Assembly: GCA_937930535.1 (NCBI GenBank) | Contig: CALGKJ010000043.1 | Location: 1 to 32,000 of the forward strand | Source of the DNA: an uncultured Clostridia bacterium | Lineage (GTDB): Bacteria; Bacillota; Clostridia; Lutisporales; Lutisporaceae | Length of the DNA stretch: 32,000 bases | Direction of reading: 5' to 3' | Shown here: in pieces, positions 9,157 through 26,407 of the stretch | How positions within the stretch are numbered: position 1 is the stretch's first letter | How the letters are laid out: every line of letters starts with the position of its first letter | The notes under the pieces: model-generated | What the model saw: only the letters and a program-made list of their open reading frames with translations | Database searches by the model: none | Told to the model about the DNA's origin: nothing | Translations under genes and position numbers: made by a program

Positions 9157-9286
9157 AACATCACTCCTCCTGATATTTAAACACAATCGCTATCTATTAA
9201 TTGATTCAATCAATGTTAATCTAATTTTCTATCATTGTACATATTGTTAAGCTCAAATTACACACTATTGCTATAATATTGTAATC

Positions 9287-9322
9287 TGTAAACTTACCAT
9301 TATTAGCCTAATGAGAAGTTTG
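9287..9322. repeat. Copy of the recurring spacer module (imperfect palindrome)
   Basis: AAACTTACCATTA-ttagcc-TAATGAGAAGTTT (9290-9321). ctaatgagaagtttg parallels ataatgggaagttg in the other copies. Confidence 0.55.
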
Positions 9323-9415
9323 CTGTACTGCCCATAATTATAATTCGATAGTGGCAACACATCCTCCTCGATTTGCTCATTAGTCACTTTACCAAGACAG
9401 TACAGTCTAATTGTA

Positions 9416-10768: not shown

Positions 10769-12355
10769 TCAAATATCCCAATCCATCTCCATACCATCCT
10801 TAAACACAAATGTCACCTTCTCCTTACTATGAACCACTACCTTATCAACAGTACCATTCCAAAGCTCCTCATCAAATTCAGTAATCACCCCATCCCTTTG
10901 CTCCAGTTCCTTAATAAAATCCAAAATCCTTTCGCCCTTAGCCCTTCTTTCTACCCTCTTATCCTCTATTTCCTCAAGTCCTCGCTGTATATTCTCATAT
11001 CTATCTTTTAAACTATTGTACCTTTCCTCATATTCAGCTTGGTCTAAAGCACTATTAGCATTTTCCTCCACACATTTTCTAAGCATTTCAGCAGCTATCA
11101 CCAATTCACTTTGAAGCCTAGTGCCTTCACTATCAAGCTTTGTAGTATCAGTCAAGGCTTCAATTATCTCATAATAACTTTTCAATATTTCTTCCTTATT
11201 ATTAATAAGACTATTGAACACTCCTACAAAGGCTTCCTTTATAGTATCCTCATATAAATGCGGTGTTGTACACTTTTTATCATTCTTAAACTTATCATTG
11301 CACTGCCATATTACCCTTCGGTATTTACTGTTAGAATGCCATGTCTTGCTACCGTAGAAGCTTCCGCATTCACCGCAGACTATGGTTCCTGAAAAGCAGC
11401 TGTTGATTCTCTTGCATCCCTTGATATTTTCCAACCTCTTTAGCTCATGCTGTACTAAATCAAATATTTCTGGACTAATTATTGCTTCATGGCTGTTTTC
11501 TATATAGTATTGAGGTATTTCTCCTTCATTTATTTTCTTTTTCTTAGTTAGAAAGTCAATTGTAAAGCTCTTTTGTAGTATAGCCGAGCCTTTGTATTTT
11601 TCATTCTGTAATATGCTTCTTATGGTACTAATGCTCCATTTCTTTTTTCCTGCTGGTGTTGGTATTCCTTCTTCTGTTAATAGCCTTGCTATTGCTGATG
11701 GTGTCTTTCCTTCAAGGAACAGTCTATATATCGTCCTTACTACCTTTGCTTCCTTTTCTACTAATTTAGGCAGGTCATCTTCTCCCTTTTCAAAGCCTAA
11801 AAAGTGCTTATAGGGAAGGCTTACCTTTTCATCAGCGAATCTCTTTCTCATTCCCCAAGTAACATTCTCGCTTATTGACCTTGATTCTTCTTGTGCAAGG
11901 CTTGACATTATTGTGATAAGTAACTCTCCTTTGCTGTCAAGGGTATAAATATTTTCTTTTTCAAAGTATACTTCTACCCCTTTTTCTTTTAGTTGACGAA
12001 CTATCATCAGGGTATCTACGGTATTCCTAGCAAAGCGACTGACCGATTTTGTTATTATTAAATCAATTTTACCTGCTAGTGCATCAGCTATCATTCTGTT
12101 AAAGCCTTCTCTTTTTTTAGTGCTTGTTGCGGAAATTCCTTCATCATAATATACTTCAATAAAAGTCCATGCAGGATTTGCTTTAATATGTCTTGTATAG
12201 TGGTCTACTTGTGCTTCAAAGCTTGACAGCTGTTCTTCATTATCGGTGGAAACCCGTGCGTATGCGGCTACTTTCTTTGTTGGTGCTATTGTTGGTATTG
12301 CTTCTATTCTTCTAGCTGTCGGCTGTATTACTGTTACTGCTCTTGCTGTGCTCAA
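10769..12355 (-). CDS. Large serine recombinase (second of a tandem pair)
   Basis: Resolvase catalytic N-domain VAAYARVSTDNEEQLSSFEAQ...ITKSVSRFARN. Recombinase domain and Cys-rich zinc ribbon (CGECGSFYG...WQCN...C). TTG start at 12355 with GGGAGGAG SD. Overlaps the upstream recombinase by 44 nt. Confidence 0.9.
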   Translation of the reverse strand: MSTARAVTVIQPTARRIEAIPTIAPTKKVAAYARVSTDNEEQLSSFEAQVDHYTRHIKANPAWTFIEVYYDEGISATSTKKREGFNRMIADALAGKIDLIITKSVSRFARNTVDTLMIVRQLKEKGVEVYFEKENIYTLDSKGELLITIMSSLAQEESRSISENVTWGMRKRFADEKVSLPYKHFLGFEKGEDDLPKLVEKEAKVVRTIYRLFLEGKTPSAIARLLTEEGIPTPAGKKKWSISTIRSILQNEKYKGSAILQKSFTIDFLTKKKKINEGEIPQYYIENSHEAIISPEIFDLVQHELKRLENIKGCKRINSCFSGTIVCGECGSFYGSKTWHSNSKYRRVIWQCNDKFKNDKKCTTPHLYEDTIKEAFVGVFNSLINNKEEILKSYYEIIEALTDTTKLDSEGTRLQSELVIAAEMLRKCVEENANSALDQAEYEERYNSLKDRYENIQRGLEEIEDKRVERRAKGERILDFIKELEQRDGVITEFDEELWNGTVDKVVVHSKEKVTFVFKDGMEMDWDI

Positions 12356-13661
12356 TGTGACTCCTCCCTTCTAAATACTTCAATTGTCTTTCTCTAGCCT
12401 TCTGTCTTGCTTCCTCACTCCAGCTTTCACTTCTTGATTTATATTCCCATTGTTTTTGTATGGCTTGTCCGTTGTTAAGAATAAATATAAGTGTGTTATC
12501 GTTAGGCACTTGTATTTCCTTTATTTTCTTTTCAAATACAGCTTCATCAAATTCATTAAGCTCTAGTATTTCGGTGCTTAGTGATATTAATATGTCTTCT
12601 GGTATCTGCTTTGAGGGACAACTGCTCTTTCCATATTTCCAATAGGTCGAACAAATCCATAAGGCTTTATTGTTCTTGACCTTATGCTTATATTTTTTTC
12701 CGCATATTCCGCAGATTATTTTGCTTGTAAAAGGGTATTTTATTTTTTCTTTTTTACCTGAGTATTTTTCACTATTTCTACTCATTATTTCTTTTGCTTT
12801 TTGAAAGGTTTCTTCATCTATTATTGCAGGATGTGTTCCTTCTGCATAATACATAGGAAGATTTCCTTTATAAAATACTAAGCTTTTGGTTAGGTGGTCT
12901 TTTACGTATTTTTTCTGTAGAAGGGCGTTTCCAGCGTATTTCTCATTTTTAATAATGTCTCCTACTCTTTCTCCGTTCCATATACCGCCTCTGAGTTTTG
13001 GTATGTTCATAGATCTCAGCTTATTGGCTATTAGTGTAGTTCCCATTCCTTCTATGTAGTCCTTAAATATCATGCGGACTATTTGTGCTTCATCTTCTTG
13101 TATTTGGATTATTCCCTTTTTGATTCTATATCCATACATAAATCTAAGATTAACAAGCTCTCCTTCTGCAAAGCCCTTTCTTATTCGCCATTTACAGTTT
13201 TCACTTACTGAGCGGCTTTCTTCTTGAGCAAAAGAAGCGAGGATAGTAAGCATAAGCTCGCCATCCCCGCTAATACTGTGAATATTCTCTTGTTCAAAAT
13301 ACACATCTATATTTAGACTCTTAAGCTCTCTTACTACCTCAAGCATAGTTAAGGTATTTCTTGAAAGTCTAGATATTGATTTTGTTATTATCATATCTAT
13401 TTTACCATTTCTGCAATCATTAATCAGTCTTTGAAATTCTGGTCTGTGTTCCTTTGTTCCAGTCAGTGCTTCATCTGCATATACACCTTTATATTCCCAG
13501 CCTCTTTGATTTTGTATTAGTTCGCTGTAGTAGCTGATTTGTGCTGAAAGAGAATGAAGCATTGCATCCTTGCCGCTAGATACCCTGCAGTATGCGGCTA
13601 CTCGCTTTCTTGTGGGTATTTTCGGTATCAAAGGCTCTATTTTCTGAACTATTCTATGCAT
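12312..13661 (-). CDS. Large serine recombinase (first of a tandem pair)
   Basis: VAAYCRVSSGKDAMLHSLSAQ...ITKSISRLSRN catalytic domain. Recombinase domain and zinc ribbon (CGICGKKYK...WICS...C). SD AAGGGGGA upstream. Confidence 0.9.
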   Translation of the reverse strand: MHRIVQKIEPLIPKIPTRKRVAAYCRVSSGKDAMLHSLSAQISYYSELIQNQRGWEYKGVYADEALTGTKEHRPEFQRLINDCRNGKIDMIITKSISRLSRNTLTMLEVVRELKSLNIDVYFEQENIHSISGDGELMLTILASFAQEESRSVSENCKWRIRKGFAEGELVNLRFMYGYRIKKGIIQIQEDEAQIVRMIFKDYIEGMGTTLIANKLRSMNIPKLRGGIWNGERVGDIIKNEKYAGNALLQKKYVKDHLTKSLVFYKGNLPMYYAEGTHPAIIDEETFQKAKEIMSRNSEKYSGKKEKIKYPFTSKIICGICGKKYKHKVKNNKALWICSTYWKYGKSSCPSKQIPEDILISLSTEILELNEFDEAVFEKKIKEIQVPNDNTLIFILNNGQAIQKQWEYKSRSESWSEEARQKARERQLKYLEGRSHIEHSKSSNSNTADS

Positions 13662-13725
13662 GGTATTTCCCCCTTTCAGCTACCTATATTAGCTCTGATA
13701 TTGATACAAAGCAAGTTAATATATG

Positions 13726-13881
13726 CTATAAGCTTCCTATAATAGGCTTATATTTTGATATCAGCATTTTATTTATTTTGTTGTATTCCTGCTCTGTTAT
13801 GAGCTTTTTTATTAGCATTGATTTTGCTATAGCAAGTGATACTCTATAGCTTCTTTCACCTTCAAATTGTTTACTGATCAT
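13726..13881 (-). CDS. 51-aa recombinase-associated small protein (not in the ORF track)
   Basis: MISKQFEGERSYRVSLAIAKSMLIKKLITEQEYNKINKMLISKYKPIIGSL*, with GGGAGAG SD. Its ATG (13879-13881) overlaps the ancestral stop of the upstream gene (ATGATCAGTAA). Short LITxxEYxxI...KY proteins are, from memory, common upstream of clostridial serine recombinases. Confidence 0.5.
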   Translation of the reverse strand: MISKQFEGERSYRVSLAIAKSMLIKKLITEQEYNKINKMLISKYKPIIGSL

Positions 13882-14311
13882 TAGAATCTCTCCCTTTTGT
13901 AAATCTCATAGCTATGTAACAGCTATGGCTGCAAAATCTTCTATTTTTATTGCCCTAGCTTTCAAATGTCCTTTTGCACATATTGCAGGTTAATGTGTAA
14001 TATGCCTTCTTGGATAATTTATCTTCATTGGACTTCCACCATTTACGTCTGCATTCATCAGTGCAGAATTTTTTACGCTGTCCTTTTTTGTTCTGCCCTA
14101 TTGGCTTTTCACATTGCTTGCAGGTTGTATGTATTTGTTTATCTTTATTTGATTTGTCAATTTCGGCAGTTGTGGTTTGAATACTAAGGTTATTTCTTCT
14201 GCAATAGGACTTTATGGTATTTTCAGAAATATTGAGTGTTGATGCTATCTGCTTATAGCTTTGACCATCCTGCCTCATTTGGTGTATTTTATTCTTTTGT
14301 TCATTAGTCAC
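13871..14311 (-). pseudogene. Sigma-70 region-4 HTH / zinc-ribbon protein, interrupted by an in-frame TAG at 13955-13957
   Basis: N-terminal HTH QSYKQIASTLNISENTIKSYCRRN, then CKQCEK...KKFCTDECRRKWW...CNMCKRTFES*. Read-through continues in frame as GNKNRRFCSHSCYIAMRFTKGRDSNDQ*, a second xFCSxxCY unit. It ends in an ATGA-type overlap with the next ORF. Confidence 0.65.
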
Positions 14312-14398
14312 TTGTTTCGCCTCCTTAAATTTATGGCTTGTTCTTTGCTTCTATATAATTGCTGTTTCTTCTGAATTAATTTCACTTTGATTTGAGGG

Positions 14399-14435
14399 TA
14401 AAATAAAAACCACCCAACCGTTATTAGTTGAGTGG
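14399..14435 (-). terminator. Rho-independent terminator downstream of the symE-like gene
   Basis: The minus strand reads ccactcaac-taataac-gttgggtgg (one G-U pair), followed by TTTTTATTTT. Confidence 0.7.
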
Positions 14436-14573
14436 CTGATTGATGCTGCCTTATATAGAGCATCTTAGCTGTTCAGCTTTTATATATAAACCCTATTGGT
14501 GTTGCCATAGGGATTGTGTCAATTTTAGGAGTAGCAAAAGGAGGTCGGATACATATACCCTGACCTCCTTTTG

Positions 14574-14846
14574 CTATTCTTCTTTTACATTTTCTTCTGC
14601 GATCTTTTGTACTGCTTTATGCTGTATTGTTTTCTCTTGATGTTGATTTACTCCTTTTTCCTTACCCAATATTGATATAGTCAGATGTCCATGACTCTGC
14701 TCCACGACTACCTTCTGCCCTATTCTAAAGCCTAGCTTTCCCAGCCATTTACCATGAAGTCTGATGGTTGGTGCTTCTTGATAAAGATATGTTGACTGAC
14801 CTGTTACTGATAGTATACGTATATCCTTTTCTTCATTAATACTCAT
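14574..14846 (-). CDS. SymE-like (AbrB/SpoVT-fold) type I toxin family protein
   Basis: PTIRLHGKWLGKLGFRIGQKVVVEQSHGHLTI matches the SymE/SpoVT-AbrB swapped-hairpin pattern. SD GAAAGGAGA upstream. A 13-bp hairpin (14534-14574) follows the stop directly. Confidence 0.65.
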   Translation of the reverse strand: MSINEEKDIRILSVTGQSTYLYQEAPTIRLHGKWLGKLGFRIGQKVVVEQSHGHLTISILGKEKGVNQHQEKTIQHKAVQKIAEENVKEE

Positions 14847-14856
14847 AGTACAAATC

Positions 14857-14881
14857 TCCTTTCAAAATTGTGTTGAAAGGA
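14857..14881 (-). promoter_or_regulatory. 5'-UTR hairpin sequestering the symE-like Shine-Dalgarno
   Basis: tcctttcaa (14857-14865) pairs perfectly with ttgaaagga (14873-14881). The minus-strand SD GAAAGGAGA (14855-14863) lies within one arm. Confidence 0.5.
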
Positions 14882-15147
14882 AATAAATAAGGCACACTGC
14901 AGAATTGATATAACCCTACACTGCGCCTTTTTGTATTATTGTTCATAATAGCAAATTAATATATAATAAATACTAGGTCGCTGTGACAGCTTTAATGCTG
15001 TCTGTGTTAGGTACTGTAACTACCTGCATAGGCTTTCGAGTGGTGGTACACTCGGAAGACATGGCGTCCTTATTTAATTTCCTTGTCTCATATTAACTCT
15101 GAAAGCCTTACTTTACAAGTCATATATCCAATCTATCGAGACTTTTT

Positions 15148-15600
15148 TTATCTTCTATCATTTAAAAAAGCTACCATCCTTTTAATAAGTGTAGCAGCAT
15201 ATTCTCCTAGAACTGTCTTTCCTTTTACAGCATTTTCATTCCAATATTCTGGTACATTTATTATTCCAAGCTTGTATAGTATATCTATGTCACTCCGTAT
15301 ATTTGTATTAGTTTCTTCAAATGATATATCAAAATATCGGAGTATTCCCTTTGCTATAGCTGTACCTATCAGCTCAATATTGGACATAATCCATTCAGCA
15401 TCCTCGGCACTATCGTGAAAAGCTACCTCCACTAAAACAGCAGGAGCATTTGTATAGGCTTGTCGAGCGTTTTAGCCCCATTGACTCCATCATATTTTGT
15501 CCAAGCTTCTTTGAACTTCCTCCAATAACCTCTTCAGGATTTCCAAGAATTAACCTATTAGCTTCACTTACTCCCTTGGGGCTGAAACTGTAGTTACAAA
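15148..15600 (-). pseudogene. Phage-type N-acetylmuramoyl-L-alanine amidase (endolysin), frameshifted remnant
   Basis: The intact 3' ORF begins inside the conserved block: the upstream in-frame text reads ARQAYTNAPAVLVEVAFHDSAEDAEWI, preceded by a stop. Further upstream, pieces (..GSSKKLGQNMMES..) lie in another frame, and there is no plausible intact start. Confidence 0.6.
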
Positions 15601-15821
15601 AGTAAATGGTAGCAACAGTTTTTTACTATTACTACCATTTTAACATTGATTTGAGGTTTATTCACCTACTCACTACAGAATTATAAATTATGCAGTCTTT
15701 CTTTTATTGGAAATAGTATAAAAATAGACCATTCTAGAAGCTAGTACATATTTATTTTTTATTGAAGTCAGTTGTACATTTTAATGTATTCAGTCACTCA
15801 TATTATTTATAATCTTATTTA

Positions 15822-16223
15822 CTAACTGTTTATAAACATAGAAGTAATATTAACCCATGTAACTTTTGTCGACAATAAAACCCCATCAGCAAATTCCATA
15901 AACAATCTTTGTACTGTTTCAATATTTAGAATTTGACTTGCTGGGATCTTCACAGATGCCCCTGATATTGAAAGAGTTCTTAAAACAATACCATCACTTT
16001 GTTGATACTCTGCTTTCCAATGAGTAAAGTCATTACTATTTATATATACCCTCACTTCAACAGTAAATTCTTCCGGTCCACCACCAACTTGAATATAGCT
16101 TTCTGTATCATTTTCAAGTATTATAAATGAATTATCAACGCCATCTAGTACACTTATCTCATCTAGTATTTGTTGTTTCGTTGGATTTATTGTTTTATAT
16201 CCACTTTCTGTTTTTAATATCAC
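15822..16223 (-). CDS. Small cytoplasmic protein, candidate second or orphan immunity protein
   Basis: 133-aa ORF 24 nt downstream of the preceding immunity-like gene, on the same strand as the toxin. No signal peptide and no recognisable catalytic motif. Confidence 0.45.
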   Translation of the reverse strand: MILKTESGYKTINPTKQQILDEISVLDGVDNSFIILENDTESYIQVGGGPEEFTVEVRVYINSNDFTHWKAEYQQSDGIVLRTLSISGASVKIPASQILNIETVQRLFMEFADGVLLSTKVTWVNITSMFINS

Positions 16224-16247
16224 TGTACCACTCCTATTTTTACCTTA

Positions 16248-16856
16248 TTATTCTGCTAATCTTTTTAATGCTTGATTTAGTACCTCTACAGAAGGTTTTC
16301 CATGTTCCCAGTTCTCTAGTACTTGTTTAGCTTTTTCAGTTTCTCCGCTAGACCAATAAGCAGCCGCCATTTTCCACTTATAGCTGTTACCGTTTAACAT
16401 TAACCTTAAATCGTGATTTTCAAAACCATCTTTTACTCGTTGTATTGATGAGAATTGCTGCCAAAATGGATATGCATACTCATTTAAATATTTTGAAATT
16501 TGTTCACTTAAAGAATTTATGTCTGTTTCTGCATTCAAAAACCATTCAGCAAAGTCTCTTTCTTTTTTTAGGTTTCCAACATTTATAGAAACAGTTGGCC
16601 AGTCTTTCCTTGGTTTCTCACCCTTCAGTTCAGCCGTAAGTTTTTCTAACTGGTCAAATGTAAATGCTACAAATATTTGAATATATCCTGCCTCTTGCCC
16701 GTTAATTTTCCTAAACAGTACATTTACTTCTTGCTTACACTCTCCTACTTTTCTAATAAATGTATTCTTTCCTTTTAGAATAAAACCTTCCTTCTGAAGA
16801 ATATTTCCAAGTCCATCAACAATGAATACATTTAGTATACTATTAATATTAATCAT
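16248..16856 (-). CDS. Candidate cognate immunity protein (DUF4304-like N-terminus?)
   Basis: 202-aa ORF starting 21 nt after the toxin stop codon. The N-terminal ...LGNILQKEGFILKGKNTFIRKVGE...VNVLF pattern resembles DUF4304-type immunity proteins, from memory. Confidence 0.5.
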   Translation of the reverse strand: MININSILNVFIVDGLGNILQKEGFILKGKNTFIRKVGECKQEVNVLFRKINGQEAGYIQIFVAFTFDQLEKLTAELKGEKPRKDWPTVSINVGNLKKERDFAEWFLNAETDINSLSEQISKYLNEYAYPFWQQFSSIQRVKDGFENHDLRLMLNGNSYKWKMAAAYWSSGETEKAKQVLENWEHGKPSVEVLNQALKRLAE

Positions 16857-16877
16857 TACTACATATCACCTCTAATC

Positions 16878-19800
16878 TCATTTTACCTTAATCTCTTTAA
16901 AAGTATCAATCCTATCTACACCGATACTTCTTGCTTTATCTCCAACAGTATTTAATCCTCCATTTTGCAATAGCTCATTATCAATCAACTTTTGTTGAGC
17001 AGTTCTAGTAGCCGTTCCACTTTTCACTTCAATTCCAACAATTGAGCCGTCTGGTTTTCTAGCTACAATATCATACCTTCTCAAAGTACCATCTGCTCCC
17101 CTTACTGATATTTCTGTACCGAGTATATCATATCCTTTATATGTTGCGTCATTTTTTATGATATCCATAGCTTTATCAACTCCAGGAGTCCCAGGTACTG
17201 TTCCAGTCTTTCCTGCGAACCGACCTTTTGAATCTCTTATGCTACCATCTGGGTACTGCTTTAGTCCATTAGCTTCAGCCGCCCCCTTAGTACTCTTACC
17301 TATACCCTTACCTTCGTTTATTAATTTAGTTACATTCTTGCTTGGCTCTCTTCTTGTATCTACAACTTCAGCAATATTTCCTTTATACTCATACATTTCG
17401 CCAACTTTAACAGGTTTTGTTTTAGGTACTCCTAAGTCCTCTTTTTCAACCCATTCGACAGTTCCATCATATAACAATATCCATGGATTTATTTCGCCGT
17501 GAATTTGCAAGCGTTTTCCTTTACGTTCTAGCTTAAATTTCTTAAACCTGAACCTTTGCAAAAGCTTAGCAATTAAATTATCTAGCTTTTTGACACCTTT
17601 TATAAGTCCCTTCTGTAAGCTCTTTATTATTAGCTTGCCGTTTTGTATTATCATACTACCGCTTCGAGATACTAACTTTGTACCTGATTTTAGTAGTTTT
17701 TTGATGCTTTTTGCTGCTTTTTTTATACCCTCTTTTGTTCTTGTAGCAGCAGCTTTCATTTTTGTCTTTACTGATGATTTTGCACTCTTTAATCCCGCTC
17801 CTGCTTTCTCTAATCCTTTTCCTACTCCCCTAAAGATTAACTCCATTGCTAATTCTACAAGCCCCATTGCTAATGCTGTTGCAAGTGATACAGCAGCAAC
17901 TGGTATATTCTTCGCCCATCCCTGAGTCAGATATTTTTCTACGTATACTGCCGCTTTTGTTATAGTGTCTACTATAGATACTACTGCGGATGCATTCATT
18001 ATATTTACTATTGCACTTATGATAGTAGGCAGAGCAGCTGTTATTGCACCTCCAGTTATAATTTCTAGTACCACAATTCCAGCTAATGCACCGATTACTC
18101 CAAGTAGAATTTTAGCCCAGTTGTCTTTTAGCCATTTTATTACAAATTGTTTTATTTGGTCAAGTACTTTTGCACCGTTTTCAGCACGCATTTTCACTTC
18201 GTCTACAATGTTCATATCTGTTTTTTTGTTTGCTTTGTCCACGTCAAATTCATTTGCTATTGTATCTATTGTATATGGATTATTACTTCCTTGTATTTCT
18301 CTTACTTCTCCATCACGTAGATTTAGACTTTCAATGAATTCAGGATCCATTTGTCCAGACATTATAGGGTCAACCGCTATGTCATCTTCTGTTAACTTTT
18401 CATTTTCTCCAGTGGACTCATTATTTATTGTCTCAGTTTCAGCTATATCTTCGTTTTCAGCTTGTCCCATGGGTTTTGATAAATCTACACCTATTAACTG
18501 TTCCCATATAGCACCTTCTATGTGAGATAATGATTCTTTTGCTGCCTGACCCAAAGCTCCTATACGCTCCATTATGTCTGCATAATTTCCAGTGATAATG
18601 TCACCAATTATAGTAAATATACTGTTATACAAGGATTGGATTGCACCAAAAAGTCCATCCAGCGTTGATGCGAGAAAATCAAGTACTTTAGTTATGCCTT
18701 TTTGAAGCATATCAGCGGCTGTATTTACAAACTTTATAGCATTATTTACTTTCTCATCAATTTTGCTGCATATTTTCTGAGCTATCTTAGGGAATTTTGC
18801 AAATACCACTTTTACAAGTTCTTTTAAGAATTTGCCTAGTTCTTTTATGATGTTAACAATTAGCTTACGCCCAGCCTCAATAATAGTTTTGACAACTTGC
18901 TTAGCTTTATCAAATATAATTTTTACTGCTTTACGCAAAACATTGTATATAGCATTTATTGCGTTCTTAATTCCATCAAGAAACTTCTTAGCTTTTTCTT
19001 TAACCCAGCTCCAGAATCCGCCTTTCTCTTTTTCTTTTTCCCCATCCTGCCGTTTCTTATCTGCGTCCTTTTTAGCTTTTTTAGTTTCATTTTGTGCGTC
19101 TTTTTCTGCATTTACTAGTTCCTTTTTAACTTCACTTTCTTTTTGTGTCTTAATATTTCCTATCTCACTTTTCTTACTTTCGGATGCCTTATTTGCCAGT
19201 TGATCATATTCTGCAACTGAATTGTTTATTTCAGTTCTCCATTCACCTCTTAACTTATCTACTTCACTTTTTGTACTTGCTTGCTCTGCAAGCTGTTTTT
19301 CCCTTGTTTCAAGTTTTTGCTGTTCAATTTGCGAATCTGTATCTGCTTTTGTAGCAATTACATCAGTATCAAATTTTTCTTTGCCTTTCTGATATTCATT
19401 TCTCTTTTCTGTCATTTGCTTATTAAGTCCCGGACTTAATGACTTATTCAGATGTACTGCTATATCATTTGAAATAGGTGTTGTTTTTGGCACTTGTACA
19501 GAAGGTGAAGTCACTGCTTGTATACCTTTTTGTGACTTCAACATTGTAGTGGTTTCCTGAGGATATATGTTATTCTCACCGAAGTCACTATTTACAAGAC
19601 CTAATTCTGCTTGCTTAGCAGCTTTCACATTTTGGTCAGACTCAGTTTTAAACCCAGTTATCTGTGATGGATCTGCTTCTCCATCCATACTGATTTTGGG
19701 GGACTGTGTAGATAGTGCTCGTGCTTCAGCCATTATTGTATCCGGGTCAGGCTCACCATTTGTATTTGTTTTAAATTCACTTAGCATTCCCTCATACAAT

Positions 19801-20927
19801 TTTCCGCTAGACTTCTGGCTCTTAAAACCATTAATAGCTGCGTGTTTGATAGGATTTAATTTCTTACCTGCTTTGCCTGTCATCTTCTTAGCTTGAAGTC
19901 CTGTAGGAGCAGATATTTGCGGTATAATCTTCTGTGTATTTTCTCTTTGTTTTTCTAGTGCTCCACGAGAAAGAGCTGCTGCTTGCGAATAAGCATCTGA
20001 TATTGCAGTAGGCGGAACATTTCCAAGCTGTTCTAAAATCTGTGCAGGGTCTTCTCCTTTAATCTTTACTGCTTGCTCTTTTGAAGGTTCCTTTGATTTC
20101 TTTTCAGAGAGTGTTGATGTAATTTCCTTAAAGGAATTTGACCATGTTTCCTTATTGTCTTGCTGATTGCTTGACTTACCGTCTTTGGTTATCTTATTCT
20201 CTTTTTCTTGGGAGTCTTCCTTTTGTATAGATTTTGTCTCTTCTTTTTCCTCTTTTGCTTTAGGAGCTTTCTTTTGTTCAGCTTCTACTGCTTCATAATT
20301 TCCTCCCATATCATCAGGAGTTTTCTCTACCTTATTTACCTGCGGTGTGTTATTATCCTTTTTTGCTTTTTTGTCTGCTGCTGGTGTATTATTATCAGCT
20401 TCTTTCTCTTTAGCAGGTAGGGCTTGTTTATCTTGTGGTGAAGCCTCCTTTGCTTCTGCTGGAGCATCTTTAGTTTTTTCAACTTTATCTGTGTCAGTAT
20501 TTTTCTTATCGCTTGCTTCAACAACTTCCGATGATTCTTGAATTACTTCTTGTGCTTTGCTTTCTGATTTACTTTGACCAGTTGGAGTTACAGCATCATT
20601 GGCTGTCATTTCATTAGGTTGTTCAGCCTTTTCTCCTGCAACGTTCTGCTTCCCAGTATTTTGTTGAGATTGGGCTTTTTGAGCTTCATGCTTCTTTTTA
20701 ATCTGAATTAGCAATTTTATAACAGCTCTGTTTCCTATTGTGTTTTGAAGCACCACCATATCCTCACGGGATAAGGTTTCAGGCTTCAAACGAATACGCT
20801 GTATTATTTCTAGTGGGTCAGCTTTATGTTTTATTGGAGTTTTCATAGCAAGTTTATTCTGTGCCTTATTTATATTTTTATCTAAAGAATTATCTTTTGG
20901 CTTTTCTACTGCTTTCATTTTCTGCAT
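16878..20927 (-). CDS. 1349-aa polymorphic-toxin-like protein with four regions: N-terminal LQxTIGNRAV motif, K/E/Q/A-rich low-complexity and coiled-coil region, hydrophobic multi-helix segment, C-terminal PD-(D/E)xK-like nuclease module
   Basis: aa 60-73 LQNTIGNRAVIKLL (20709-20750). aa ~80-650 is charged and low-complexity. Hydrophobic helices ILLGVIGALAGIVVLEIITGGAITAALPTIISAIV...VAAVSLATALAMGLVELAMELIF lie at ~17821-18112. C-terminus ...RDSKGRFAGKTG...GTLRRYDIVARKPDGSIVGIEVKSGTATRTAQQKLIDNEL carries a D...E-x-K...Q pattern. Confidence 0.7.
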   Translation of the reverse strand: MQKMKAVEKPKDNSLDKNINKAQNKLAMKTPIKHKADPLEIIQRIRLKPETLSREDMVVLQNTIGNRAVIKLLIQIKKKHEAQKAQSQQNTGKQNVAGEKAEQPNEMTANDAVTPTGQSKSESKAQEVIQESSEVVEASDKKNTDTDKVEKTKDAPAEAKEASPQDKQALPAKEKEADNNTPAADKKAKKDNNTPQVNKVEKTPDDMGGNYEAVEAEQKKAPKAKEEKEETKSIQKEDSQEKENKITKDGKSSNQQDNKETWSNSFKEITSTLSEKKSKEPSKEQAVKIKGEDPAQILEQLGNVPPTAISDAYSQAAALSRGALEKQRENTQKIIPQISAPTGLQAKKMTGKAGKKLNPIKHAAINGFKSQKSSGKLYEGMLSEFKTNTNGEPDPDTIMAEARALSTQSPKISMDGEADPSQITGFKTESDQNVKAAKQAELGLVNSDFGENNIYPQETTTMLKSQKGIQAVTSPSVQVPKTTPISNDIAVHLNKSLSPGLNKQMTEKRNEYQKGKEKFDTDVIATKADTDSQIEQQKLETREKQLAEQASTKSEVDKLRGEWRTEINNSVAEYDQLANKASESKKSEIGNIKTQKESEVKKELVNAEKDAQNETKKAKKDADKKRQDGEKEKEKGGFWSWVKEKAKKFLDGIKNAINAIYNVLRKAVKIIFDKAKQVVKTIIEAGRKLIVNIIKELGKFLKELVKVVFAKFPKIAQKICSKIDEKVNNAIKFVNTAADMLQKGITKVLDFLASTLDGLFGAIQSLYNSIFTIIGDIITGNYADIMERIGALGQAAKESLSHIEGAIWEQLIGVDLSKPMGQAENEDIAETETINNESTGENEKLTEDDIAVDPIMSGQMDPEFIESLNLRDGEVREIQGSNNPYTIDTIANEFDVDKANKKTDMNIVDEVKMRAENGAKVLDQIKQFVIKWLKDNWAKILLGVIGALAGIVVLEIITGGAITAALPTIISAIVNIMNASAVVSIVDTITKAAVYVEKYLTQGWAKNIPVAAVSLATALAMGLVELAMELIFRGVGKGLEKAGAGLKSAKSSVKTKMKAAATRTKEGIKKAAKSIKKLLKSGTKLVSRSGSMIIQNGKLIIKSLQKGLIKGVKKLDNLIAKLLQRFRFKKFKLERKGKRLQIHGEINPWILLYDGTVEWVEKEDLGVPKTKPVKVGEMYEYKGNIAEVVDTRREPSKNVTKLINEGKGIGKSTKGAAEANGLKQYPDGSIRDSKGRFAGKTGTVPGTPGVDKAMDIIKNDATYKGYDILGTEISVRGADGTLRRYDIVARKPDGSIVGIEVKSGTATRTAQQKLIDNELLQNGGLNTVGDKARSIGVDRIDTFKEIKVK

Positions 20928-21241
20928 TTTCAGTTCTCCTCTCTATAAAGGAGCCGCTTACCAGCTATCCTCTATTTTTGCATGAGTTTGCCTTTTTAAC
21001 ACCTTCACTCATATATATATAGGAGATTTGAGATTGATTTTTACAGCCAAATTTTCAATTTATTATTGCTGAATTTTATATGTACAAATATTTATATCTT
21101 TTATCGCGATAAAAATAGAGATTACATCCAATTATATAATCTCTCTTATTTTTAACTTATTTATTAGACCTGTGTAGTAAAAGGGGAAATTTCAAGAAAC
21201 AAGCCCTAACTTGGTAATACATAGAGCTTTAATATATCTAC

Positions 21242-21660
21242 TTAGTGCACCTTAGTATACAAATTTACAATTTCAACCACATATTGTTGATAAAAACACC
21301 CTATTGTGTCTCCTATGGTCTTTAATCCTAAATTTTCACCTTGGTACTCTAAGAGTTCTAGTAATATATGGGTCACAAAAACCATGCTCCAGTATCTTTT
21401 AATAGATGTTAAAGACTCCACTTGATACTGGTCAAAATCTAGCGAATTCTTATGATATCTTTAACTAACCTCTATATCCCAAAGGTTTTTATAGTATTCT
21501 AATATAGCTTTACTATCAAGATTTACATCTGTGCTTATAATATATGATGCCTTATCAGATATATCTGTTTTGCTCCAACATATAAAATTTACTGCATTTT
21601 TAAGGTCATTGATCTTTCCTTCATAACGATATTCGTAATATTTATCGTTACCTGCTCCAG
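21242..21660 (-). pseudogene. DDE transposase (IS4/IS701-like) C-terminal fragment with an internal stop
   Basis: The minus strand reads ...SKAILEYYKNLWDIEVS*RYHKNSLDFDQYQVESLTSIKRYWSMVFVTHILLE..., matching the YxxRWxIExxF(K/R)xxKxxLxLDxxQxRS..I.R block of DDE transposases. There is no N-terminal half. Confidence 0.6.
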
Positions 21661-21670
21661 CTTCTCCAAT

Positions 21671-21796
21671 CTAAAAAAGAATATTGTCAATGGTATCATA
21701 AGCTTCTGCTTCCTCTATTCCATTAACCTGTTTATATATTTTAAAGAGTGCTTGAAGCTTTTTAGGAGTACAGCTCCAAAACTGCTCCTCTGTCAT
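21671..21796 (-). CDS. 41-aa phage-tail-module remnant ORF
   Basis: MTEEQFWSCTPKKLQALFKIYKQVNGIEEAEAYDTIDNILF*. Located just downstream of the tail chaperone gene, where a second chaperone or the tape-measure gene would start. It is cut off at the transposase fragment. Confidence 0.3.
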   Translation of the reverse strand: MTEEQFWSCTPKKLQALFKIYKQVNGIEEAEAYDTIDNILF

Positions 21797-21861
21797 TTTT
21801 AATAGATTAGTCGCTAAATACAAAAGCCACTCCCACGACCATGCTTGCTCATTGGAATGGC

Positions 21862-22188
21862 TTATGCTTCCCCCATATTTTCTTCTACCCCTGGCATTGC
21901 TGTATTAAGTGCTTCATTGATGGCTATACCTAATCTTTCTAAATCATTGACACCTAGCTTCTCACCTACTTCCATTAAGGTAGCAGTATCATCTTCAACC
22001 TTTACCGCCGCATATATCAAGGCTCGTATTGCTTTAATCTTCATGTTTTGTAAATCCTCAAAGGCTTTGTTTAGGTCCCCATAGATTTCCTCAAGCTCGC
22101 AAAAGACGTTCATATTGAGCTTTAGGCTGTATTCCGTATCACCTAATGTGAACTTGATACCTTTGTTTTTTAAGTCCACTGCTTTCAT
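21862..22188 (-). CDS. Phage tail assembly chaperone
   Basis: MKAVDLKNKGIKFTLGDTEYSLKLNMNVFCELEEIYGDLNKAFEDL... is typical of siphovirus tail chaperones. GGAGGTAAAACAA-ATG at 22186-22188 is preferred to the upstream ATG at 22266. Confidence 0.65.
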   Translation of the reverse strand: MKAVDLKNKGIKFTLGDTEYSLKLNMNVFCELEEIYGDLNKAFEDLQNMKIKAIRALIYAAVKVEDDTATLMEVGEKLGVNDLERLGIAINEALNTAMPGVEENMGEA

Positions 22189-22216
22189 TTGTTTTACCTC
22201 CAATCTGTTTTTGGGT

Positions 22217-22247
22217 ATAAAAAAACAGGGAGTTTTTGTTCCCTGTT
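22217..22247 (-). terminator. Rho-independent terminator after the TIM-barrel gene
   Basis: Minus strand: aacaggga-acaaaaac-tccctgtt, followed by TTTTTTTATACC. Confidence 0.7.
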
Positions 22248-22288
22248 GGTTTGTAGTATATATCAATATGCAATCCTTTTGTAAAATC

Positions 22289-23017
22289 CTATCTTTCCAT
22301 AAATATCTTTTGTATTATATCCTTAGATTTGATAATTTCCTCATCTGTATTAACTACTTCAAATATTATTTTTCCATCATAACCCTTTAAATAATTTTGA
22401 AAGATTAATTCGAAATTCAGTTCACCTTGTCCTATCGGAATATGCTCATGCTCTACATTAAATCGTTTATCTGCAATATGTAAGCATTTAGGGAATTTAA
22501 CGTTAATTATTTCCTGCAAATGATTATAGTTATCTATGTGTGCAATATCAAGAAGCAACTCAACATCAGGATTTCTATCAAATACTATTTTTAAGTCGCT
22601 AGGTGTATAATTAATCTTATCAATCACACTATTGTTTTCAATATATAACTTAATATTATCCTTTTTAAGCAGCTGATTTGTTTTATAAATATTCTCAGCA
22701 AGTATATTTATTGTTTCAGAATCTACTGGATGTTCTTCGCAAACAGGATGTATAATTACCTCCTTGTGATTTAGATATTTTAATATTCTAATTAATTCGT
22801 TATTATATTTATCATAATCATTAATATCATAAACAGCATGAATTATTGCTGGAAATTTACAATCTAGTATATATTTTTCTTTGGGGCATAATACCTTATC
22901 AAGTACTAGCTCACCTTTCGCAAACCAGATTTGCATAAAGTCAAATTTATTGGATTTTGAAAACTCTATTTCATCTTGATAATTATTAAACCACCTTATA
23001 CTTCTTCCATACTCCAC
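22289..23017 (-). CDS. Xylose-isomerase-like TIM-barrel protein (sugar phosphate isomerase/epimerase or AP-endonuclease-2 fold)
   Basis: Pattern KFDFMQIWF...IIHAVYD...VIIHPV...LYIENNS...LLLDIAHI...LHIADK...EHIPIGQGELNF is characteristic of the AP_endonuc_2 / xylose isomerase-like TIM-barrel family. GTG start. Confidence 0.7.
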   Translation of the reverse strand: MEYGRSIRWFNNYQDEIEFSKSNKFDFMQIWFAKGELVLDKVLCPKEKYILDCKFPAIIHAVYDINDYDKYNNELIRILKYLNHKEVIIHPVCEEHPVDSETINILAENIYKTNQLLKKDNIKLYIENNSVIDKINYTPSDLKIVFDRNPDVELLLDIAHIDNYNHLQEIINVKFPKCLHIADKRFNVEHEHIPIGQGELNFELIFQNYLKGYDGKIIFEVVNTDEEIIKSKDIIQKIFMER

Positions 23018-23065
23018 TATATTTTCACTATCCTTTTTATAAGCTTTATTGTCTAAAACTATAAC

Positions 23066-23629
23066 CTATCTAGTATTCTGCCATATATTTAACATCTTTC
23101 TTACTCTATCTCTTACATCTATTGGTAAATTACCTTCTACGGCTCTTTCTAACAAAAGCGGTTTCTTTATTCCGTTTGATAGTATATAATTTTCTATCAT
23201 ATTAACCTTTAGCTCTCTCCTAGGTATTAGCTGATAAATTACATACCAATCTTCTAATGATGTGAATGGAATATCTATTCCATTTATTTTTCTATATTCA
23301 GAAATAGAATTATAATCAAAAACGTATTTGAATACTCCGCTCTTATGATTGATTCTAAGTCCTGCCATTACATCAACATCAACTTGATTTATTATGTACT
23401 CATAGAAATATTCTGTAGAATATACATCTACCCTCTCCAATTTTTTCCTTACTCCAATGCTTTTAAGGATATCATCAGTTCTATCTATATCATTAATATC
23501 AACTAATATATCTATATCATTGGGATCATCTATAAAGCCAAATTGATTTAGTAATATTGAAGCACCAACACCCCATACTATATTTGATTTATTTAGTTTT
23601 TCTCCTAAATAAGCTAAAGTATTAAACAA
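23066..23629 (-). CDS. Small nucleotidyltransferase-fold protein (ANT(2'')/Lnu-like architecture)
   Basis: IVWGVGASILLNQFGFIDDPNDIDILVD matches the Pol-beta NTase motif G-[GS]-x(n)-DxD. The C-terminal IPFTSLEDWYVIYQLI resembles small antibiotic and substrate adenylyltransferases. TTG start, and there is no in-frame ATG nearby. Confidence 0.6.
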   Translation of the reverse strand: MFNTLAYLGEKLNKSNIVWGVGASILLNQFGFIDDPNDIDILVDINDIDRTDDILKSIGVRKKLERVDVYSTEYFYEYIINQVDVDVMAGLRINHKSGVFKYVFDYNSISEYRKINGIDIPFTSLEDWYVIYQLIPRRELKVNMIENYILSNGIKKPLLLERAVEGNLPIDVRDRVRKMLNIWQNTR

Positions 23630-23684
23630 ATTTTCTTCACACCTTACTCTTAATGTTTTTCAACTACAAATTTTTTATTACATT

Positions 23685-24162
23685 CTACCATATAATTCTA
23701 CAATCAACAATATCTACAGCATCCGCATCTCCAACAAAACGATAATTCCCATCATAGTCTCTAGCATAGAAAGTCCCCTTTAGCTTTGCACTCTTTGGCT
23801 GTGGCTTCTCCCCTTCAACAGCCATACAAATCTATACTTCCCATTGTTCTTCTTAGATTAAAACGCTAGTGCAATAGTAGGCGGTATATTATCCTTGCTC
23901 TCAATCAAATCCCCTTTATAACCTTCGCTCTGCTCTAAAGGTATAACTGATTAATTTCTATTTCAACATCCACACCTTCAAAGGATGTTACAACATCTTC
24001 AACGCTATCTTCAGAGTAAATGTTCTCCGAATTTGACTTAGGTGTGAGCTTGGCATTTATTGCCCTTTCAAGCTTTTTAGGTACATTATAAGTAGCTCCT
24101 GTATTATAATCCTTAGTAAGTGCCGCTATATGTATATCTCTCAATCCTATTTGTCTTGCCAT
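23685..24162 (-). pseudogene. Phage major tail protein (phi13-like), multiply frameshifted
   Basis: N-terminus MARQIGLRDIHIAALTKDYNTGATYNVPKKLERAINAKLTP... The rest is recoverable only by switching frames: ..LEQSEGYKGDLIESKDNIPPTIALAF*, ..SKKNNGKYRFVWLLKG.., ..EGEKPQPKSAKLKGTFYARDYDGNYRF... Confidence 0.7.
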
Positions 24163-24300
24163 CTAGTCTATCTCCGTTTCTTCTATATAAATAGTGATAA
24201 AGTTTTTACATTGACGAAATTATGAGACACTATTTACATCTGATAGAAAGCGCATGTTTTATAATATTCCGATGTAAGTTCATTGGCACTTTCTATATAA

Positions 24301-24342
24301 ATAAAAAAACAGGGGTGATTAAAACATGAACTGCTCCCTGTT
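24301..24342 (-). terminator. Rho-independent terminator after the TA operon
   Basis: Minus strand: aacaggg..ccctgtt stem, followed by TTTTTTTATTT, 12 nt after the toxin stop. Confidence 0.6.
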
Positions 24343-24353
24343 ACCAGTTTTAT

Positions 24354-24668
24354 TTATATTAGACTCAGCCAGTCTCTTCTATTATATAGTATTCTTATAA
24401 TTGTAACTGTTTTGCTTTCCTCAGTAACAATATAAAATATAATATAGTTATCTACGATTATTTTTCGTATACCTTTATATGCTAATCTTTTGTCTGATAC
24501 TAATGCATTTCTTAAGGGCATAACCTCTAAAGAGTTAATACCTTGAGCAATTTTTGTAATTACCTTTCTTGCAACTTCAGGCTCTAAAAGTTCTTTAGAT
24601 ATATAGGAAACAATTGCTTGTAAATCTATTTCAGCAGGTTCAGTGATTTGAATATCATAAGTGTTCAT
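24354..24668 (-). CDS. Type II toxin, RelE/ParE superfamily
   Basis: MNTYDIQITEPAEIDLQAIVSYI...IRKIIVDNYIIFYIVTEESKTVTIIRILYNRRDW is a typical ParE/RelE layout. The ATG at 24666-24668 lies 1 nt from the antitoxin stop (TAAAATG). Confidence 0.8.
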   Translation of the reverse strand: MNTYDIQITEPAEIDLQAIVSYISKELLEPEVARKVITKIAQGINSLEVMPLRNALVSDKRLAYKGIRKIIVDNYIIFYIVTEESKTVTIIRILYNRRDWLSLI

Positions 24669-24669
24669 T

Positions 24670-24927
24670 TTATAAATCCTTCTCAATATCTGACAAAGCT
24701 TCTTTAAAAGGTCTTACCTTCTTCTTTCGCATTGCATCTGCACCCTCGTCAAGCAATTTATATAATTCAAATTTGCCTACTAGCTTTTCATAGGTTTCAA
24801 TGCTCATAACTGCTAAGTCTCCCTGTCCATTTTTAGTTATATAGACCGGTTCATTATATTTATGGCAGAACTCTGATATTTCAGTATATTTATTTCTCAA
24901 GTCCGAACTTGGTCTTATTGCTGGCAT
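24670..24927 (-). CDS. Type II antitoxin, Phd/YefM family
   Basis: MPAIRPSSDLRNKYTEISEFCHKYNEPVYITKNGQGDLAVMSIETYEKL is the canonical Phd/YefM N-domain. GGAGGTAATACT-ATG. Confidence 0.8.
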   Translation of the reverse strand: MPAIRPSSDLRNKYTEISEFCHKYNEPVYITKNGQGDLAVMSIETYEKLVGKFELYKLLDEGADAMRKKKVRPFKEALSDIEKDL

Positions 24928-25008
24928 AGTATTACCTCCTAAATATAGATATATCAATATTATATCATTATTTAGATATATTAACCAAGTTTTTTTATGT
25001 TGTTTGAA

Positions 25009-25692: not shown

Positions 25693-25862
25693 ACAAAGCA
25701 CCTCCACTTATACAAACTCGTATTAATTATACCATAAAAACCCAACAATAAACTTATAGTCTTTTCTTAGGTAGCAATATGTTAAACTGAGAATATATTG
25801 TCGAAATCCATATGCTCAGCATACACAAACATAACAAAACTCACCAGCATTCCATATACGCT

Positions 25863-26043
25863 AAAAGGTGCACACCCCTTGTCCAAAATGCACCTAAATG
25901 CACACCCCCGGTGCATTTTACCCTAATACTACCACAAATACCGACAAAATCCAGCAAATAACTACACATATTTTAACACAAAAAACACTAAAACCCTTTG
26001 AAATCAAAGGGTTTGCTATGTATCAATATAAAATTCTTATTTG
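25863..26043. repeat. Right copy of the ~182-bp direct repeat, abutting the tmRNA 3' end
   Basis: Aligns with 3987-4168. It ends in cttatttg, overlapping the first 2 nt of the tmRNA CCA end. Confidence 0.85.
25978..26014 (-). terminator. ssrA terminator
   Basis: Minus strand: aaaccctttga-tt-tcaaagggttt, followed by a T-rich run (tagtgttttttgtg). Confidence 0.75.
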
Positions 26044-26407
26044 GTGGAGGCGAGGGGAATCGAACCCCTGTCCGAAAGTGCTTCAACCAAAGCTTCTCCG
26101 AGCGCAGTTAATCCTTTAACATTCCCTCTGCTGCACGCCGATTAACAGGCTTACAGCTTTAGTAGCTTCATTTTACATCCCTATCGCAAAGCTTAGATAA
26201 GTGACGTCCTCACCTTACAGTGAGGCACACCGCTAAATGACGCCCAATCCTAAAGTGCGGTAACTCTAGGTTGAACGAGCAGCCTTAGGCTGCTAACGCG
26301 TAATTTTCGTTAGCGTTTAAATTTAATTTCCAGCTTTTTTTCGTGCCTCTGGGACCACGGCTCGCTACCTCAATCTCTACTACCCCCGTCGAAACCATTA
26401 CGCCCCC
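26042..26407 (-). ncRNA. ssrA: tmRNA (SsrA)
   Basis: The minus strand starts GGGGGCGTAATGGTTTCGACGGGGGTAGTAGAGATTGAGG and ends ...GGGGTTCGATTCCCCTCGCCTCCACCA (tRNA-like T-arm and acceptor). The internal tag ORF GCT AAC GAA AAT TAC GCG TTA GCA GCC TAA (26285-26314) encodes ANENYALAA*. Confidence 0.95.

Follow-up and report, generated by a model that had tools for sequence, protein, structure and literature searches.

A giant DUF4157-less gene, probably of a polymorphic toxin family linked to contractile injection systems, in an apparent prophage remnant of an uncultured Clostridia bacterium

The window analysed here is a stretch of 32,000 nucleotides (nt), positions 1 to 32,000 of contig CALGKJ010000043.1 (GenBank assembly GCA_937930535.1), from an uncultured Clostridia bacterium assigned to the Lutisporaceae, in a metagenome assembly of run ERR9287890. 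Within a decayed prophage it carries a cassette of three open reading frames (ORFs), of which the first encodes a protein of 1349 amino acids (aa) and the other two encode proteins of 202 and 133 aa. The giant gene, which is without DUF4157, belongs to a widespread family of polymorphic nuclease toxins that are very large, modular and tape-measure-like and that related bacteria encode beside extracellular contractile injection systems (eCIS). By analogy with these relatives, we infer delivery by an eCIS in this genome as well, and give this reading as a whole a probability of roughly 0.7.

The three-gene cassette and the family of its giant protein

The three ORFs are co-oriented on the minus strand, are separated by 21 and 24 nt and are each preceded by a Shine-Dalgarno-like sequence (Table 1). 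These ORFs and spacings had been reported in a first-pass annotation made from the nucleotide letters alone, and were found in the window together with all motifs quoted there, i.e., LQNTIGNRAVIKLL (aa 60-73), RDSKGRFAG (aa 1231), RRYD (aa 1283), EVKSG (aa 1300) and TAQQK (aa 1309) of the 1349-aa protein. A homologue search with this protein yielded eleven proteins between 1000 and 1770 aa in length, which align collinearly with it across N-terminus and body (E down to 1e-273). An exhaustive search with the body (aa 285-1166) reached 315 representative clusters at E≤1e-30, and 968 when the threshold was relaxed to E≤1e-10. With matches of this strength and number, the sequence features of the protein lie above chance expectation.

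The N-terminal module of about 75 residues is conserved in every Bacillota member of the family, full-length members giving hmmsearch E values of 1e-28 to 1e-35; a homologue search with the N-terminal 85 aa alone returned no candidates. The first-pass annotation had described about 550 aa of K/E/Q/A-rich low complexity and coiled coil, but a variable low-complexity spacer was recognised in aa 81-280 only, and aa 281-800 are the best-conserved part of the family. The latter region has the motifs GEDPAQILEQL..PPT and GEADPSQ, a charged coiled-coil-like stretch and then tape-measure-like amphipathic helices. Residues ~640-1127 match six PHROG tape-measure families (best E=2.2e-10), as do the corresponding parts of relatives. 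The block of hydrophobic helices noticed at first pass was recovered as four transmembrane (TM)-like segments within aa 936-1026. The pre-tip segment (aa 1126-1222) carries a KFKLERKG...INPW motif, and in most complete members of the NPW-bearing subfamily the NPW motif lies ~150-530 aa (mostly ~150-400) from the C-terminus. Pfam searches with the whole protein and with five segments found no export, tape-measure, DUF4157 or Tox-REase family, in agreement with the first-pass statement that the protein has no HExxH domain and no recognisable export domain; there is no signal peptide, LXG or WXG in the protein. NCBIfam has no model that matches the toxin, its tip or one of the two genes downstream.

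In species-representative genomes, a scan located 67 related loci, which belong to Bacillota, Cyanobacteria, Bacteroidota, Myxococcota, Leptospirales and other Proteobacteria, none of the 67 being from Actinobacteria. The homologues found with the whole protein end in different toxin domains (PF15604; WHH with Colicin-DNase; AHH). When the last 260 residues of 53 distinct complete members were clustered, 29 tip clusters resulted, several of which span phyla. Among these tips, Pfam recognised AHH (eight members), Colicin-DNase, WHH and GH-E (two each) and Endonuclea_NS_2, Tox-SHH and RelA_SpoT (one each), and the tips of the family appear to be mostly nucleases. The family is thus one of polymorphic toxins, in which N-terminal module and body stay constant and the tips at the C-terminus are exchanged, as the first-pass annotation had proposed for the window protein.

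Table 1. Coordinates of the cassette, of the segments of the 1349-aa protein and of the flanking prophage remnant in the window
Feature	Position (nt)	Strand	Basis
Giant gene, intact; tape-measure-like polymorphic toxin, probably of eCIS type	16878..20927	-	1349-aa ORF, collinear with homologues P0002-P0012
Conserved N-terminal module, aa 31-80, including LQNTIGNRAVIKLL (nt 20709-20750)	20688..20837	-	hmmsearch
Variable K/E/Q/A-rich low-complexity spacer, aa 81-280	20088..20687	-	KEQA fraction 0.52, 12% conserved
Conserved family body, aa 281-800	18528..20087	-	Invariant columns, 40-51% conserved
Acidic linker, aa 801-925, net charge -20	18153..18527	-	Composition; non-helical in low-confidence AlphaFold2 (AF2) model
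Hydrophobic block, aa 926-1035, four TM-like helices	17823..18152	-	Kyte-Doolittle peaks, in aa 936-1026
Basic K-rich helix, aa 1036-1125 (net charge +22), and pre-tip segment, aa 1126-1222	17262..17822	-	Composition, motifs
Toxin tip, aa 1223-1349, predicted PD-(D/E)xK nuclease domain	16881..17261	-	AF2 model, conserved columns
DUF4304 gene, probable cognate immunity protein	16248..16856	-	202-aa ORF
Second downstream cassette gene	15822..16223	-	133-aa ORF
Terminator-like hairpin 3' of the cassette	15604..15640	-	
tmRNA gene beside smpB	26042..26407	-	ARAGORN
Major tail protein pseudogene, frameshifted	23691..24190	-	tblastn in two frames
Tail assembly chaperone (134 aa) and downstream partner (50 aa)	21671..22266	-	phrog_2115 E=3.7e-23
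Probable decayed DDE transposase C-terminal fragment between phage remnant and toxin gene	21240..21640	-	In-frame stop; DDE_Tnp_1 E=0.059
Endolysin (amidase) C-terminal remnant, 94-aa ORF	15148..15534	-	PHROG endolysin matches
Two large serine recombinases, far end of prophage remnant	10769..13661	-	Pfam Resolvase, Recombinase, Zn_ribbon_recom

The C-terminal tip, the downstream genes and orphan cassettes

The last 127 residues of the giant protein have homologues in short proteins and fragments, where the domain comes after an Rhs core, after PT-HINT (PF07591) or after a filamentous haemagglutinin; this module starts at the RDSKGxFAG stretch. An AF2 model of the tip, built on the alignment of tip homologues, reached a pLDDT (predicted local distance difference test) of 88.5 and has an alpha-beta-beta-beta-alpha-beta core. 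The conserved residues are D1286 in the second strand (60-68 in model numbering), E1300 and K1302 in the third strand (74-81), and Q1312 and D1316 in the next helix. Compared with the PDB by Foldseek, the model matched best, among others, the AdnA nuclease domain, Can2/Card1, EndoMS, MGME1, a Cas4-like protein, Exo5, Bax1, SfsA and VRR_NUC, all of which we take to be PD-(D/E)xK-type nucleases; matches to Pfam were weak (NOV_C, E=0.015; MmcB-like, E=0.1), and a PDB sequence search with the tip returned only noise. Model and structural matches together give a PD-(D/E)xK fold to the C-terminal module with the D...E-x-K...Q pattern that had been singled out in the first-pass annotation, and we confidently assign the tip to this fold as a predicted nuclease. 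The same tip was also observed in an array of polyimmunity genes and orphan toxins (L072:868-6088; L numbers denote related loci, P numbers homologous proteins) that contains PoNi, Ntox15 with GAD-like/Tdi1, and GH-E with a SUFU protein.

The 202-aa protein encoded directly downstream matches DUF4304 (PF14137) with 29.9 bits (cutoff 23.2, E=5.8e-7) over 113 of the 115 profile positions. It is probably the cognate immunity protein of the tip, because a DUF4304 homologue directly follows the same tip in each context checked, namely in L007 (42% identity) and in L072, L073 and L074 (E 1e-16 to 1e-20), the latter three being orphan arrays of the Rhs/HINT type; behind other tips, YezG-like or Ank proteins take this position. 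The survey of homologues for joint variation of tip and downstream gene, which the first-pass annotation had proposed, was thus run here, and the first downstream gene does co-vary with the tip. A literature search for DUF4304 found no papers. For the 133-aa protein, L007 alone has a homologue at the equivalent place (39% identity), and an unrelated 116-aa gene replaces it in the L072-L074 arrays; its match to Imm1 (PF14430) stayed below threshold (14.3 bits against a cutoff of 22.4, E=0.072). It may be an accessory protein or an immunity protein left from another toxin. Where two immunity-like genes had been called at first pass, only the 202-aa gene therefore behaves as a cognate immunity gene, the 133-aa gene being linked to this tip in a single other genome.

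In L007, a locus of Paenibacillus macerans, the resident toxin ends in another tip and is paired with a YezG-like immunity gene (E=6e-47). This pair is followed by a hairpin terminator and then by a start-less orphan module of 323 aa (L007:14708-15679), the first 138 aa of which are 94% identical to the hydrophobic block of the resident toxin and the end of which is of the tip type found in the window. Homologues of both downstream genes come next, and then the eCIS AAA+ gene. Because of this near-identity, and because a second P. macerans strain is without the window's tip type, tips appear to be switched by recombination at the hydrophobic block, for which P. macerans provides direct evidence; aa 926-1035 of the window protein would accordingly be the recombination handle. 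The segment L007:14640-16739 (strain MER 50.2) is a clear example of an alternative tip stored in an eCIS locus. All bioinformatic hallmarks of a polymorphic toxin system in the sense of Zhang et al. 2012 are present, i.e., variable tips, the same tip on unrelated scaffolds, a downstream immunity gene that co-varies with the tip, and orphan modules that share the handle.

Linkage to injection systems, prophage surroundings and rival explanations

In seven distinct Bacillota loci (L001/L013, L007, L008, L011, L012, L031 and L039; L007 and L008 from P. macerans, L011 and L031 from Ruminiclostridium) the family gene adjoins an eCIS operon, which gives a delivery context to a protein whose route had been left unexplained at first pass. 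The gene order is a 206-aa gene of no assigned family, holin (phrog_13712, E=1.4e-31), Amidase_2, a CBM3/HYR protein of 2200-2400 aa, toxin, immunity-like gene, AAA+ ATPase, Pvc16_N, sheath, gp19-type tube, tail assembly chaperone, second tube gene, a 490-aa ORF, CIS_tube and Phage_GPD spike. In L001, for example, the toxin is followed by an Ank protein and then by AAA, Pvc16_N, sheath, gp19 tube, CIS_tube and Phage_GPD. The 490-aa ORF sits in the tape-measure position, i.e., the interval between tube and tube initiator, whereas the family toxin lies upstream of the AAA+ ATPase instead. The holin, the Amidase_2 lysin and the CBM3/HYR protein open these loci (L001:1158-9742; likewise in L002, L007, L008 and L012), which points to a lysis cassette that belongs to the locus and serves to release the particles, and to a fibre or adhesin that binds carbohydrate.

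A second line of evidence comes from DUF4157, which marks eCIS toxins, often with linkers of more than 1000 aa (PMC8213781; PMC3482391). The corresponding profile (PF13699, "eCIS core domain") matches near the N-terminus of three homologues (P0006, P0007 and P0011). At L063, three proteins have LQRTIGNQAV or LQRTIGNRAV (aa 48-57) and, further on, HELTH (aa 310-426), and among 117 full-length-like representatives HExxHxxQ occurs in 30, the LQxxxGNxAV motif in eight and both in three. The association of this motif with DUF4157, which the first-pass annotation had pointed out, thus holds in related loci. The three DUF4157 proteins of L063 (L063:461-12738, Leptospirales; 1720, 648 and 608 aa) were further observed to have near-identical first ~100 residues, including LQRTIGNQAV, and in this they resemble the shared N-terminal regions of Cgo1 and Cgo2 of AlgoCIS. 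EAT12 (Ccel_1518) of Ruminiclostridium cellulolyticum, considered as a possibly validated relative, was rejected, as it is an unrelated gene of 59 aa.

If the product is delivered by an eCIS, the N-terminal ~80 residues would direct the unfolded protein into the tube lumen of a particle encoded elsewhere in the genome, with the help of an Afp15-like ATPase. For AlgoCIS cargo, loading needs the N-terminal region, and DUF4157 is dispensable (bioRxiv 10.64898/2026.05.27.728243); by analogy with these data, the N-terminal module is a candidate particle-loading signal. Contraction would expel the toxin from the particle, the tape-measure-like helices and the four hydrophobic helices would insert into the target membrane or envelope, and the nuclease tip would reach the target cytoplasm and cut nucleic acid, while the DUF4304 protein would protect the producer and its kin.

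The cassette itself lies in a region (10769-26042) that is a gutted siphophage prophage of the type of Clostridium phage CWou-2020b, situated at the transfer-messenger RNA (tmRNA) gene, ssrA. The island probably integrated at the tmRNA gene; a search for direct repeats of the ssrA 3' end that would delimit it found none. What is left of the prophage is a pseudogene of the major tail protein, the chaperone pair as the last piece of its tail module, a fragment of the amidase and two serine recombinases, and the head genes, tape measure, Dit/Tal and holin are gone. Positions 24190-23720 have ~72% DNA identity to the major-tail region of CWou-2020b, and positions 22188-21710 the same identity to its positions 9019-9497, ending just before the 839-aa tape-measure gene of the phage. 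The chaperone is 67% identical to its CWou-2020b counterpart and has a weak Phage_TAC_6 match, residues 102-183 of the phage amidase align to 15301-15534, and the phage recombinase occupies the same place as the two recombinases of the window. The transposase-like fragment is followed by the toxin cassette, the amidase fragment, SymE, a helix-turn-helix (HTH) gene and the two recombinases, the toxin cassette replacing the whole segment from tape measure to lysin. The giant gene, placed at first pass in the slot of a tape-measure or distal-tail gene between tail chaperone and lysin remnants, thus takes precisely the place that the tape measure has in a phage like CWou-2020b. This position nevertheless looks like an accident of prophage decay, because a probable transposase fragment lies at the junction, all other tail genes are missing and no relatives were found in either of the two phage collections searched. 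Of the first-pass proposal of a toxin delivered by a tail or phage particle, the direction towards a tail-like particle (an eCIS) stands, and the support drawn from the slot does not.

Several points weigh against the assignment to the eCIS-linked family or limit what it implies here. The accepted marker of eCIS effectors is absent: there is no PF13699 match and no HExxH in the protein or its neighbours. No homologue of sheath, tube, Pvc16_N, AAA or spike was found in the window, and tblastn of the eCIS-locus holin, amidase, CBM3/HYR giant, AAA, sheath and tube against the window gave no matches; it is therefore free of debris of such a locus. Of the features by which eCIS-associated toxins are recognised, the window thus has neither DUF4157 in the protein or an adjacent gene nor eCIS core genes within about 10 genes; the latter are found in the relatives L001, L007, L008, L011, L012, L031 and L039. 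In Foldseek the tip scored modestly (best E=2.7e-3, probability 0.99), and Pfam has no Tox-REase model that it matches; to our knowledge, some Tox-REase families are absent from Pfam. An AF2 model of aa 630-1125 of the body was all-helical with a pLDDT of 37, too poor for a fold search and thus uninformative. The cassette lies in what appears to be a decaying island and may be out of use, and loading, secretion, nuclease activity and immunity are all predicted from sequence or model.

The main rival takes up these points. It holds that the cassette is a relic, brought in by the traffic of mobile elements into a host with no compatible particle, where it persists for immunity against the toxins of neighbours or has simply not yet decayed. 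The lack of eCIS genes in the 32 kb, the pseudogenes, probable insertion sequence (IS) fragment and gutted prophage around the cassette, and the existence of orphan tip-immunity cassettes elsewhere (L007, L072-L074) all speak for it. We consider it clearly less probable than a family member in use, at somewhat under one chance in five: the three ORFs are intact with good ribosome-binding sites, the toxin gene runs through 4 kb without a frameshift, and the toxin is full length, including the N-terminal module that is missing from true orphan modules. Ruminiclostridium papyrosolvens C7, moreover, has one copy beside an eCIS (L031) and a full-length unlinked copy among unrelated genes (L006), so that both coexist in one genome; copies unlinked to an eCIS appear not to be unusual in the family.

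That the giant protein is instead the tape measure of the prophage, preceded by its chaperone genes and delivering a toxin with the phage tail, would account for the exact occupation of the slot, for the PHROG tape-measure matches of aa 640-1127 and for a weak pairwise match to the tape measure of CWou-2020b (E=2e-4). It is very improbable all the same, as phage DNA homology stops before the tape-measure start with the probable transposase fragment intervening, nothing is left of Dit, Tal, the other tail genes, the head genes or the holin, the toxin is collinear from residue 1 with eCIS-linked relatives, and in the eCIS loci of these relatives the separate 490-aa ORF holds the tape-measure position. 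A family scan of 2.9 million IMG/VR viral contigs and tblastn of the body against 50,697 INPHARED phage genomes found no relatives, and a bona fide phage tape measure was rejected on these grounds. Delivery by some other route, e.g., membrane self-insertion, vesicles or cell lysis in place of a contractile particle, is about as remote. The four hydrophobic helices, the holin and amidase of the Bacillota loci and the many members in other phyla with no eCIS structural gene within about 9 kb would suit it; the lack of a signal peptide, LXG, WXG or other export domain, the consistent eCIS synteny in Bacillota and the DUF4157 association of distant members stand against it. In 16 non-Bacillota loci with long flanks, no eCIS structural family was among the 25 most frequent flanking Pfam families, and extra DUF4157 proteins and YbjN-family proteins recur there. 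Finally, there is an outside chance that the slot position is not accidental, tape-measure-like eCIS effectors and siphophage tape measures still being exchangeable, and that the element comes from a phage or tailocin with a nuclease-tipped tape measure and immunity genes; such an origin would form a direct evolutionary bridge from phage tape measures to injection-system toxins.

Some further observations concern the flanks of related loci and of the cassette. The YbjN family is the commonest flanking Pfam family in the 16 non-Bacillota loci (8 of 148 ORFs), where its members may serve as chaperones, adaptors or immunity proteins. In the cyanobacterial loci L017, L024, L029, L030, L037, L040 and L045, ORFs of ~165-260 aa followed by one of ~390 aa recur downstream of the toxin. 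In the window, the major-tail and chaperone genes, which adjoin in the reference phage, are separated by a two-gene insert (22289-23629). It encodes a nucleotidyltransferase of 187 aa that resembles NTP_transf_5 but scores below the Pfam cutoff, and a TIM-barrel protein of 242 aa of the AP_endonuc_2 type; the two genes may be a moron or act as a pair in defence. Directly beside the tmRNA gene (24354-25707) lie a toxin-antitoxin pair of the Phd/YefM-ParE type and the gene of an HEPN protein like Cthe_2314. Genes for a TIR-domain protein (348 aa) and a GmrSD-type restriction enzyme (577 aa) lie at 7453-10462, and a SymE-like toxin ORF at 14574-14846. This region of conflict genes behaves like a defence island. 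An IS21-type element with an rve integrase-core ORF and IstB (E=1.2e-69) is located at 1205-3498.

Comparison with known systems

The closest described analogue of the window protein is Tme of Streptomyces davawensis, in which DUF4157 is combined with disordered regions, a coiled coil, predicted TM helices, a remote likeness to tape measures and a nuclease at the C-terminus (PMC11126660). Tme (BN159_7576) and the window protein are alike in their very large size, several TM helices, coiled coil, tape-measure similarity, nuclease C-terminus and association with contractile injection systems. Tme differs in having DUF4157 at its N-terminus, in being encoded directly upstream of baseplate genes and in its EndA-like HNH tip, whereas the window protein has no DUF4157, a PD-(D/E)xK tip and an adjacent immunity gene, and its relatives are encoded upstream of an AAA+ ATPase. 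Of the features by which Tme-like proteins are defined (Nagakubo et al. 2024), tape-measure similarity, TM helices, coiled coil and disorder are found here, and N-terminal DUF4157 and synteny upstream of baseplate genes are not. For lack of these last two, the protein is not called a member of the Tme group; it would work like Tme, to which it is likened by its described features. Sle1 of the SLP particle of Streptomyces lividans (bioRxiv 10.1101/2025.11.06.686954) is, likewise, a tape-measure-like effector of a contractile injection system that is without DUF4157, but acts together with a small DUF4157 protein from a neighbouring gene; neither the window nor the Bacillota loci examined encode a partner of this kind.

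With the DUF4157/PVC-metallopeptidase toxins (PMC3482391, PMC8213781, PMC11297309) the family shares a constant N-terminus, linkers that can exceed 1000 aa, a variable C-terminal toxin and the linkage to eCIS. Unlike in these, the HExxH domain is absent from the window protein and from about three quarters of the top representatives, and the locus has immunity genes, which many described PVC-type toxins do not. The cargos of AlgoCIS similarly have an N-terminal region common to the cargos of one system and needed for lumen loading, followed by a variable C-terminal effector; the likeness is one of architecture, and the N-terminal module here is partly ordered and conserved, whereas that of the AlgoCIS cargo is purely disordered. 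Tip swapping at a conserved handle, silent orphan modules and immunity genes directly downstream are features shared with Rhs, CdiA and LXG loci, in which the scaffold for delivery is an Rhs cage, a type V secretion system filament or a type VII secretion system LXG domain and not a tape-measure-like eCIS cargo. The siphophage tape measure of CWou-2020b (QPW62297.1) is also a long all-helical protein with hydrophobic segments that is encoded downstream of chaperones, and has weak profile similarity; the window protein differs from it in having no Pfam tape-measure family, no relative in two phage collections and an incomplete tail module around it.

No curated model or paper was found in NCBIfam and the literature for the body, the tip or an immunity role of DUF4304. 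A large family with neither a Pfam nor an NCBIfam model of its body thus gains a name and a delivery context, and surveys based on the marker probably miss most of its members, because only about a quarter of the top representatives carry DUF4157. The presence of swappable tips, orphan cassettes and adjacent immunity genes in eCIS cargo of Gram-positive bacteria argues for an antibacterial use of the particles, and the immunity genes bear on the published puzzle that many eCIS toxins have none. The candidate pair of PD-(D/E)xK toxin tip and DUF4304 immunity protein is a first functional lead for DUF4304, and the N-terminal module of ~75 aa is a candidate loading tag for the engineering of Bacillota eCIS. 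The locus belongs to the broad class of PVC/eCIS toxins recognised since 2012 and is not a new kind of system; within this class it is a DUF4157-less variant that has immunity genes and orphan cassettes.

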